A stretch of DNA of 64,000 bases. It comes from Escherichia coli (lineage in GTDB: Bacteria > Pseudomonadota > Gammaproteobacteria > Enterobacterales > Enterobacteriaceae). The position numbers were made by a program, and so were the translations under genes. A model generated the notes under the pieces. The model saw only the letters and a list, made by a program, of their open reading frames with translations, was not told the origin of the DNA and made no database searches. Where the stretch lies: the NCBI RefSeq assembly GCF_003334785.1, contig NZ_QOWV01000001.1, one strand, 5' to 3'. Of the stretch, positions 63,172-63,401 are shown one piece after another (position 1 is the stretch's first letter; every line of letters begins with the position of its first letter).

Positions 63172-63280
63172 GATTCTTCGCCTTTGGTTTGTTTTCCGCT
63201 CGTTATCAAAGCGTAAAATATAATGACCACCATTCGAATCTGTATGCAAACTAAATGTTTGTCAAATGTTAAATTGAGTT

Positions 63281-63401
63281 TGCAAAAATGAAAACCCACT
63301 GCTAGATTGAAAAAATATTGAACATAAAGGTCATTTAAAGCGCAGTAATGGCGATAATTTAGTCCACTTTGTGAGATTGAGCATGGAAAATATAATGAAC
63401 A
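63281..63401. promoter_or_regulatory. puuA-puuD divergent control region with PuuR-box-like motifs
   Basis: aaaatataatgaaca at 63387-63401 (overlapping puuD start) and the similar aaaaatattgaacat at 63311-63325; PuuR 15-bp box recalled from literature. Confidence 0.55.

Follow-up and report, generated by a model that had tools for sequence, protein, structure and literature searches.

Four probable PuuR operators in the divergent puuA-puuD control region of Escherichia coli

Where on the DNA between the divergent genes puuA and puuD does the repressor PuuR sit, and do its sites account for control of both promoters? The question is raised by the last 2.2 kb of the window (the whole 64-kb stretch of Escherichia coli DNA that was analysed), which hold the region of puuA on the minus strand and puuD on the plus strand, and in which an initial annotation had noticed putative PuuR boxes. 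PuuR sites in this spacer are real, they had been correctly interpreted and they are already known, PuuR control of the puu genes via sites in the spacer having been published since 2012 and used in putrescine biosensors. More specifically, positions 63212-63401 very probably represent a PuuR operator set, consisting of four 18-bp quasi-palindromic operators (O1-O4), for which a mechanism is proposed below.

The locus, its orthologues and its promoters

The coding sequence of puuA, a glutamate-putrescine ligase, occupies 61753-63171 on the minus strand; the start codon ATG lies at 63171-63169, and the translation begins METNIVEVENF. The gene is identified by RefSeq and by a glutamine-synthetase-like NCBIfam family. 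On the plus strand, puuD, a gamma-glutamyl-GABA hydrolase, runs from 63383 to 64000, where it is cut at the window end, and is identified by RefSeq and by the NCBIfam equivalog NF008471 (E = 2e-137). The intergenic region between the two genes comprises 63172-63382, or 211 bp. The segment 62800-64000 has 100% identity to many complete E. coli genomes, K-12-type genomes included, in which puuA and puuD are annotated at this place (RefSeq). The repressor gene puuR lies beyond the window end; in orthologous loci, including one from E. coli (L003), it begins 27 nt 3' of puuD, and the PuuR of the orthologous locus matches the NCBIfam equivalog NF007408 at 385 bits. Of 5426 complete E. coli genomes, only 4372 give a megablast match to 62800-64000; judged by this search, about 19% of the genomes seem to lack the puuA-puuD region or to carry a strongly diverged version. 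Three wastewater strains (H1-H3: NZ_CM129855.1 and two sister records) return a two-piece match, covering 1235 bp for the 1201-bp query, which suggests an insertion of about 34 bp somewhere in their puuA-puuD region.

A scan with a PuuD fragment, taking one genome per species, yields 59 loci from genera that include Escherichia, Pseudocitrobacter, Klebsiella, Raoultella, Enterobacter, Lelliottia, Trabulsiella, Buttiauxella, Cedecea, Pluralibacter, Franconibacter, Yokenella, Hafnia, Serratia, Pantoea and Erwinia. In 57 of the 59 loci puuA is divergent from puuD, the remaining 2 being cut within puuD, and puuR follows directly 3' of puuD in 58 of 59 (one locus is cut short), with PuuR identities of 82-100%. 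The spacer alignment consists of 57 distinct sequences, the window included; spacer length is 205-222 bp in all genera bar most Serratia (236-240 bp). One record, CACSKA010000001.1 (L047), is labelled Chryseobacterium sp. 18061 and holds an enterobacterial puuA-puuD-puuR locus, the spacer of which is nearly identical to that of Citrobacter sp. 18056 (L024) from the same project; mislabelling or contamination of the record is likely.

The promoter of puuD comprises a -35 hexamer, TTGCAA, at 63280-63285 (+), which is kept as TTGCAA or TTGAAT, and a -10 hexamer, TAGATT, at 63303-63308 (+), which reads TAGATT in 49 of the 57 aligned sequences; the 17-bp spacer between them is invariant in the alignment. 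Park et al. 2013 (PMC3798270) place an ArcA site at -70 to -28 of the puuD start; from the position of that ArcA site, the puuD transcription start falls at U00096.2 1359075, equal to window position 63314 with an offset of 1,295,761. For puuA, which is listed as 'no TSS' in the same study, a -35 hexamer TTGACA is predicted at 63260-63265 (-) and a -10 hexamer CAGATT at 63237-63242 (-). The former appears as TTGACA, TTGCAA or TTGAAA in nearly all 57 sequences; in the latter, the A at the second and the T at the sixth position are invariant in 57 of 57, and the two hexamers are 17 bp apart in 56 sequences and 16 bp apart in one. Transcription of puuA is thereby predicted to start near 63230. 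Support is weaker for an alternative puuA promoter, TTGCAT-18-CATTAT, than for TTGACA-17-CAGATT; if the alternative were the true one, O1 would lie over the -10 hexamer instead.

A sigma-70-like element, TTGTGA-16-TATAAT, at 63369-63396 (+), with 10 of 12 matches, coincides with the ribosome-site region of puuD and the core of O4, and would initiate inside puuD; it was not accepted as a real promoter and is probably a side effect of the O4 core. The puuD leader, moreover, shows no unusual RNA fold (z = 0.25), and on this z-score an RNA-structure role of the conserved leader block was rejected.

Repeated boxes and an 18-bp inverted repeat

The 15-bp PuuR box is taken here to be AAAATATAATGAACA, a consensus presumably derived from these same K-12 sites. 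It is said to originate from Nemoto et al. 2012, J Bacteriol 194:3437. Because the consensus would stem from the very sites under study, an exact match to it is circular, and independent evidence was therefore sought in repetition, in comparative genomics and in the literature.

The exact match claimed by the initial annotation is indeed present, AAAATATAATGAACA being read with 0 mismatches at 63387-63401 (+), and so is its overlap with the beginning of puuD: the box begins 4 nt past the A of the puuD ATG (63383), and the operator that contains it, O4, overlaps codons 1-7. A close variant had been placed at 63311-63325; such a variant exists, but its register was wrong by one base, the best match being 63310-63324 (+), AAAAAATATTGAACA, with 2 mismatches to AAAATATAATGAACA. 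A third copy, AAAATATAATGACCA at 63215-63229 (+), has 1 mismatch and had been overlooked. In the whole 64-kb window these three, at 63215, 63310 and 63387, are the only sites with at most 2 mismatches, and all of them are on the plus strand. Altogether the window holds 8 box matches against 2.35 expected, the five remaining ones all having 3 mismatches, and 0 of 100 shuffles attain 8. Within 63172-63410, which is 67% A+T, two non-overlapping 15-mers that differ by at most 1 mismatch arise in 5 of 2000 dinucleotide shuffles, and a triple with at most 3 mismatches pairwise in 1 of 2000. The boxes thus score well above background, both in the consensus scan and with a profile derived from the orthologues. 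A full-text literature search for the box strings gave no relevant paper.

For this profile, the boxes were lengthened by 3 nt leftward to 18-mers, and the orthologous boxes 1-3 (the boxes of O1, O2 and O4) were used. The 15-mer proves to be the right-hand portion of an 18-bp quasi-palindrome, about TGGACAATA/TATTGTCCA: when the profile is compared with its own reverse complement, the correlation is r = 0.82 in register and 0.02-0.38 in shifted registers. In single E. coli sites, only 4-5 of 9 pairs are symmetric. The commonest half-sites are TGGACATTA, TGGGCAATA, TGGACTAAA, TGTTCAATA and TGTCAAATA, and from this half-site spectrum the operator is therefore described as an imperfect inverted repeat, with a half-site that would read about TG(G/T)(A/T)CAATA. 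As far as the sequence goes, such inverted-repeat symmetry fits a dimeric HTH protein; PuuR carries the domains HTH_3 and Cupin_2, and no solved structure of PuuR was found.

Judged from the letters, the four sites O1-O4 fit one 18-bp profile, and their count is equal to that of the published motifs. O1, CGTAAAATATAATGACCA, spans 63212-63229 (+), contains the box 63215-63229 and scores 22.3 bits on the plus strand and 17.4 bits on the minus strand; relative to the predicted start, it covers +2 to +19 of the puuA transcript. O2, TTGAAAAAATATTGAACA, at 63307-63324 (+), contains the box 63310-63324, scores 24.1 bits and extends from -7 to +11 of the puuD promoter, across the puuD start at 63314. 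O4, TGGAAAATATAATGAACA, at 63384-63401 (+), contains the exact box 63387-63401, scores 25.2 bits (+) and 18.1 bits (-), and covers +71 to +88 of the puuD transcript, within codons 1-7. The remaining site, the probable operator O3, is a profile match in inverted orientation, TGGACTAAATTATCGCCA on the minus strand, at 63349-63366 (-), that is, at +36 to +53 in the puuD leader. Of the 57 aligned sequences, 53 have a profile match for O3 on the opposite strand, the median score being 11.7 bits, and background scores of at least 10.9 bits occur at 3 of 634,000 positions. In Escherichia O3 is degenerate, and the E. coli copy reaches 5.7 bits only; its half-sites lie at the 99.6 and 99.9 background percentiles, in the correct geometry. 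The E. coli site also contains GATAAT and could be a secondary -10 element instead.

Two of the four sites, namely the 63215-63229 box and the weaker inverted copy at 63349-63366, had been absent from the initial annotation. Its suggestion that a repressor binds over both divergent promoters is nonetheless supported by O1, the overlooked site on the puuA side, and by O2, whereas the exact-match box, at +71 to +88, is not at a promoter. O1, O2 and O4 presumably coincide with the PuuR footprints published by Nemoto et al. 2012, and O3 would then be the fourth published PuuR site. The distances of 95 bp between O1 and O2 (about 9 turns) and of 42 bp between O2 and O3 (about 4 turns) place these three sites on one helical face; O2 and O4 are 77 bp apart, or 7.3 helical turns, an out-of-phase distance that lends no support to a simple loop. 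Beyond the puu spacer, the top profile match is CGTTAACAATAATGACCA at 56836-56853 (+), with 16.9 bits, within a 321-aa minus-strand ORF (56768-57733); it is probably a chance match.

Conservation, the ArcA site and rival explanations

Mean conservation in the 57-sequence alignment amounts to 1.74 bits for box 1 and O1, 1.68 bits for box 2 and O2, 1.57 bits for box 3, and 1.60 bits for O3 and its block 63353-63366; the ArcA region has 1.47 bits and the surroundings of the puuD -10 hexamer 1.55 bits, and the spacers between the blocks have 0.5-1.05 bits. Non-coding conservation is highest in the operators, and the conserved blocks are sharply bounded. Alignment across the enterobacteria thus bears out the boxes, which are kept from Escherichia to Serratia, Erwinia and Hafnia, whereas the flanking spacers are not. 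The same holds where O4 overlies protein-coding sequence: at codon 4 of puuD, all 57 of 57 loci use ATA, a rare codon for Ile, whereas at codon 10 Ile is encoded by ATT or ATC alone; AAC never occurs at codon 3, which reads AAT or GAT, nor TTC at codon 5, which reads TTT. The synonymous positions of codons 3-5 are frozen, and a constraint at the level of DNA therefore acts at box 3. In Serratia, Cedecea-like and Pantoea loci, a repeat finder gives the boxes as mutual inverted repeats. The sequence of the sites, their repetition, their palindromy, their conservation and the promoter geometry around them are direct observations. In Serratia grimesii (L040:2904-2914, approximately window 63287-63297), ATATTGCCCAT, a further element that resembles a half-site, is the perfect complement of ATGGGCAATAT at the puuD start and sits between the puuD -35 and -10 hexamers; in Serratia, it may constitute a fifth site for PuuR.

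The further A/T-rich motifs near 63260-63295, which had also been related to PuuR, do not stand, as they score at background with the orthologue profile (best -1.4 bits) and the segment is occupied by the ArcA site and the -35 hexamers. The puuD/puuA ArcA site of four direct repeats that Park et al. 2013 (PMC3798270) list in their supplement, ATGCAAACTAAATGTTTGTCAAATGTTAAATTGAGTTTGCAAA at U00096.2 1359005-1359047, is exactly window 63244-63286 (+), with the core box ATGTTTGTCAAATGTTAA; it covers the -35 hexamers of both puuA and puuD, and its TGTTA-like repeats are 11 bp apart (TGTTT at 63258 and TGTTA at 63269). The same study reports an ArcA ChIP-seq peak at 1359011-1359020, together with a 15-fold repression of puuA and an 11-fold repression of puuDR by ArcA. 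The ArcA core box is flanked by a 12-nt inverted repeat, 63245-63256 / 63273-63284 (TGCAAACTAAAT / ATTGAGTTTGCA, 92% complementary), which is centred between the two -35 hexamers under the outer ArcA repeats of Park 2013 and could serve another factor, for example at a reported FNR site. Such an FNR site in the puuA-puuD spacer is ascribed to Partridge 2006 by a citing paper; the FNR consensus TTGAT-N4-ATCAA gives only 3-mismatch matches in the spacer, at 63196-63209 and 63252-63265, and a scan across the window at 3 mismatches, with 352 matches, is uninformative.

Whether the boxes could be anything other than repressor sites depends on how these data fit other explanations. That they are chance matches in A/T-rich intergenic DNA is scarcely credible, even though both the region (67% A+T) and the consensus are rich in A/T: none of the 100 whole-window shuffles attains the observed number of matches, the triple recurs in a single one of 2000 local shuffles, and it is the boxes, not the spacers that flank them, that are shared by distant genera. 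It is also very unlikely that the boxes are kept for RNA polymerase, as promoter -10-like (TATAAT) or UP-like elements. A perfect TATAAT does occur within both O1 and O4, promoter-like TTGTGA-16-TATAAT is found at 63369-63396, the minus strand of O1 could give a CATTAT -10 for puuA, and O3 contains GATAAT; however, conservation reaches past the hexamer to the symmetric flanks TG(G/T)..C / G..(A/C)CA, the profile is palindromic, O4 lies inside coding sequence 71-88 nt 3' of the mapped puuD start, and better-conserved promoter hexamers are located elsewhere. Published work puts PuuR binding in this spacer.

More weight, though that of an improbable outcome, is given to the explanation that only O1, O2 and O4 are PuuR operators in E. 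coli, that 63349-63366 is kept for a second puuD promoter or for another factor, and that the fourth motif lies elsewhere, for example at 63256-63270 (-), AACATTTGACAAACA, with 5 mismatches. The low score of O3 in E. coli, just 5.7 bits, speaks for it, and 63256-63270 is the next-best match to the consensus assumed here and lies inside both truncated reporter fragments described below. However, with the profile from the orthologues this segment does not rise above background, and it forms the ArcA box core; on these two grounds it was ruled out as the fourth PuuR site. O3, for its part, has a median of 11.7 bits across species with its half-sites in the correct 18-bp inverted geometry, and the changes that it undergoes between clades remain within the half-site repertoire (TGGAC or TGTTC). 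The reading with four operators, O3 included, is the one followed here.

Proposed mechanism, comparable systems and use

Binding of PuuR, the number of four motifs, release by putrescine and binding of ArcA are taken from the literature. A 2023 paper citing Nemoto et al. 2012 states that the puuA-puuD spacer is bound by PuuR and 'contains four DNA-binding motifs', and this and other papers state that putrescine releases PuuR; further papers describe puuA, puuD, puuE and puuP as repressed by the putrescine-responsive PuuR. When the primers of the 2023 paper are placed on the window, its full puuD promoter fragment corresponds to 63172-63420 and the truncated one to 63239-63382, and its full puuA promoter fragment corresponds to 63172-63407 and the truncated one to 63172-63295; the full fragments reach just far enough to take in 63387-63401. 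With C. glutamicum as the host, that paper reports that PuuR-dependent repression reaches 36-fold on the full puuD fragment but 6.9-fold on its truncated version. This difference is suggestive of a contribution of the outer boxes O1 and O4 to repression, although the two are removed together and in a Corynebacterium host, and the comparison is not site-specific.

In the mechanism proposed as most likely, PuuR, viewed as a putrescine-responsive XRE-HTH/cupin repressor encoded just 3' of puuD, would occupy the operators as dimers when putrescine is low. With O1 over the very beginning of the puuA transcript and O2 across the puuD start, RNA polymerase would be excluded or trapped at both divergent promoters; at the same time, O3 and O4 would, as we infer, act as auxiliary operators by cooperative binding, looping or roadblocks, thereby strengthening the repression of puuD and hence of puuR. 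Putrescine would act at the cupin domain and take PuuR off the DNA. Because puuR is within the puuD operon, the circuit would be negatively autoregulated. ArcA-P, situated between the operators and over both -35 hexamers, would add anaerobic repression that is independent of PuuR.

A more far-reaching interpretation is put forward tentatively, since it is slightly more apt to fail than to hold: PuuR would recognize the 18-bp inverted repeat TGGACAATA/TATTGTCCA and not an asymmetric 15-mer, and the four operators conserved in the Enterobacterales would include two 3' of the puuD start, one of which would have kept the synonymous sites of puuD codons 3-5 fixed throughout the cluster's history, while the position of O1-O3 on one helical face would allow a higher-order complex that bridges both promoters. 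The 2012 paper or regulon databases may already contain parts of this reading with an 18-bp site and four operators.

The sites described here and the PuuR operators of E. coli K-12 puuA-puuD are the same locus with the same sequence, and there is no biological difference between them; relative to the published K-12 description, the 18-bp palindromic reading, the placement of four sites with respect to the promoters and the conservation across genera are added. In the lac (O1/O2) and gal (OE/OI) systems, an operator at the start site is joined by an auxiliary one within the first structural gene, which raises repression. The puu operators similarly lie at the start and downstream in the transcribed or coding region, and repression is 36-fold with the outer operators and 6.9-fold without them; unlike in lac and gal, only 35-95 bp separate the operators, a much smaller distance, and one operator set serves two divergent promoters. 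For PuuR, looping or tetramerisation would be a hypothetical feature. PauR and PsdR of Pseudomonas aeruginosa (PMC7901475) are, like PuuR, XRE-cupin repressors of catabolic pathways with HTH_3 and Cupin_2 domains, and all of them are local repressors of a neighbouring catabolic operon that are released by a metabolite of the pathway; however, these are different proteins with different operators. Among the ArcA-P sites with multiple direct repeats (Park et al. 2013, PMC3798270), 63244-63286 is itself the published site, and its regulator differs from PuuR.

For annotation, the value of the analysis lies in the coordinates of four operators in the window, set apart from the ArcA site and from the promoter hexamers. 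Moreover, the popular 15-bp box would be understood as part of a symmetric 18-bp site, which could help in the design of biosensors and in motif scanning.
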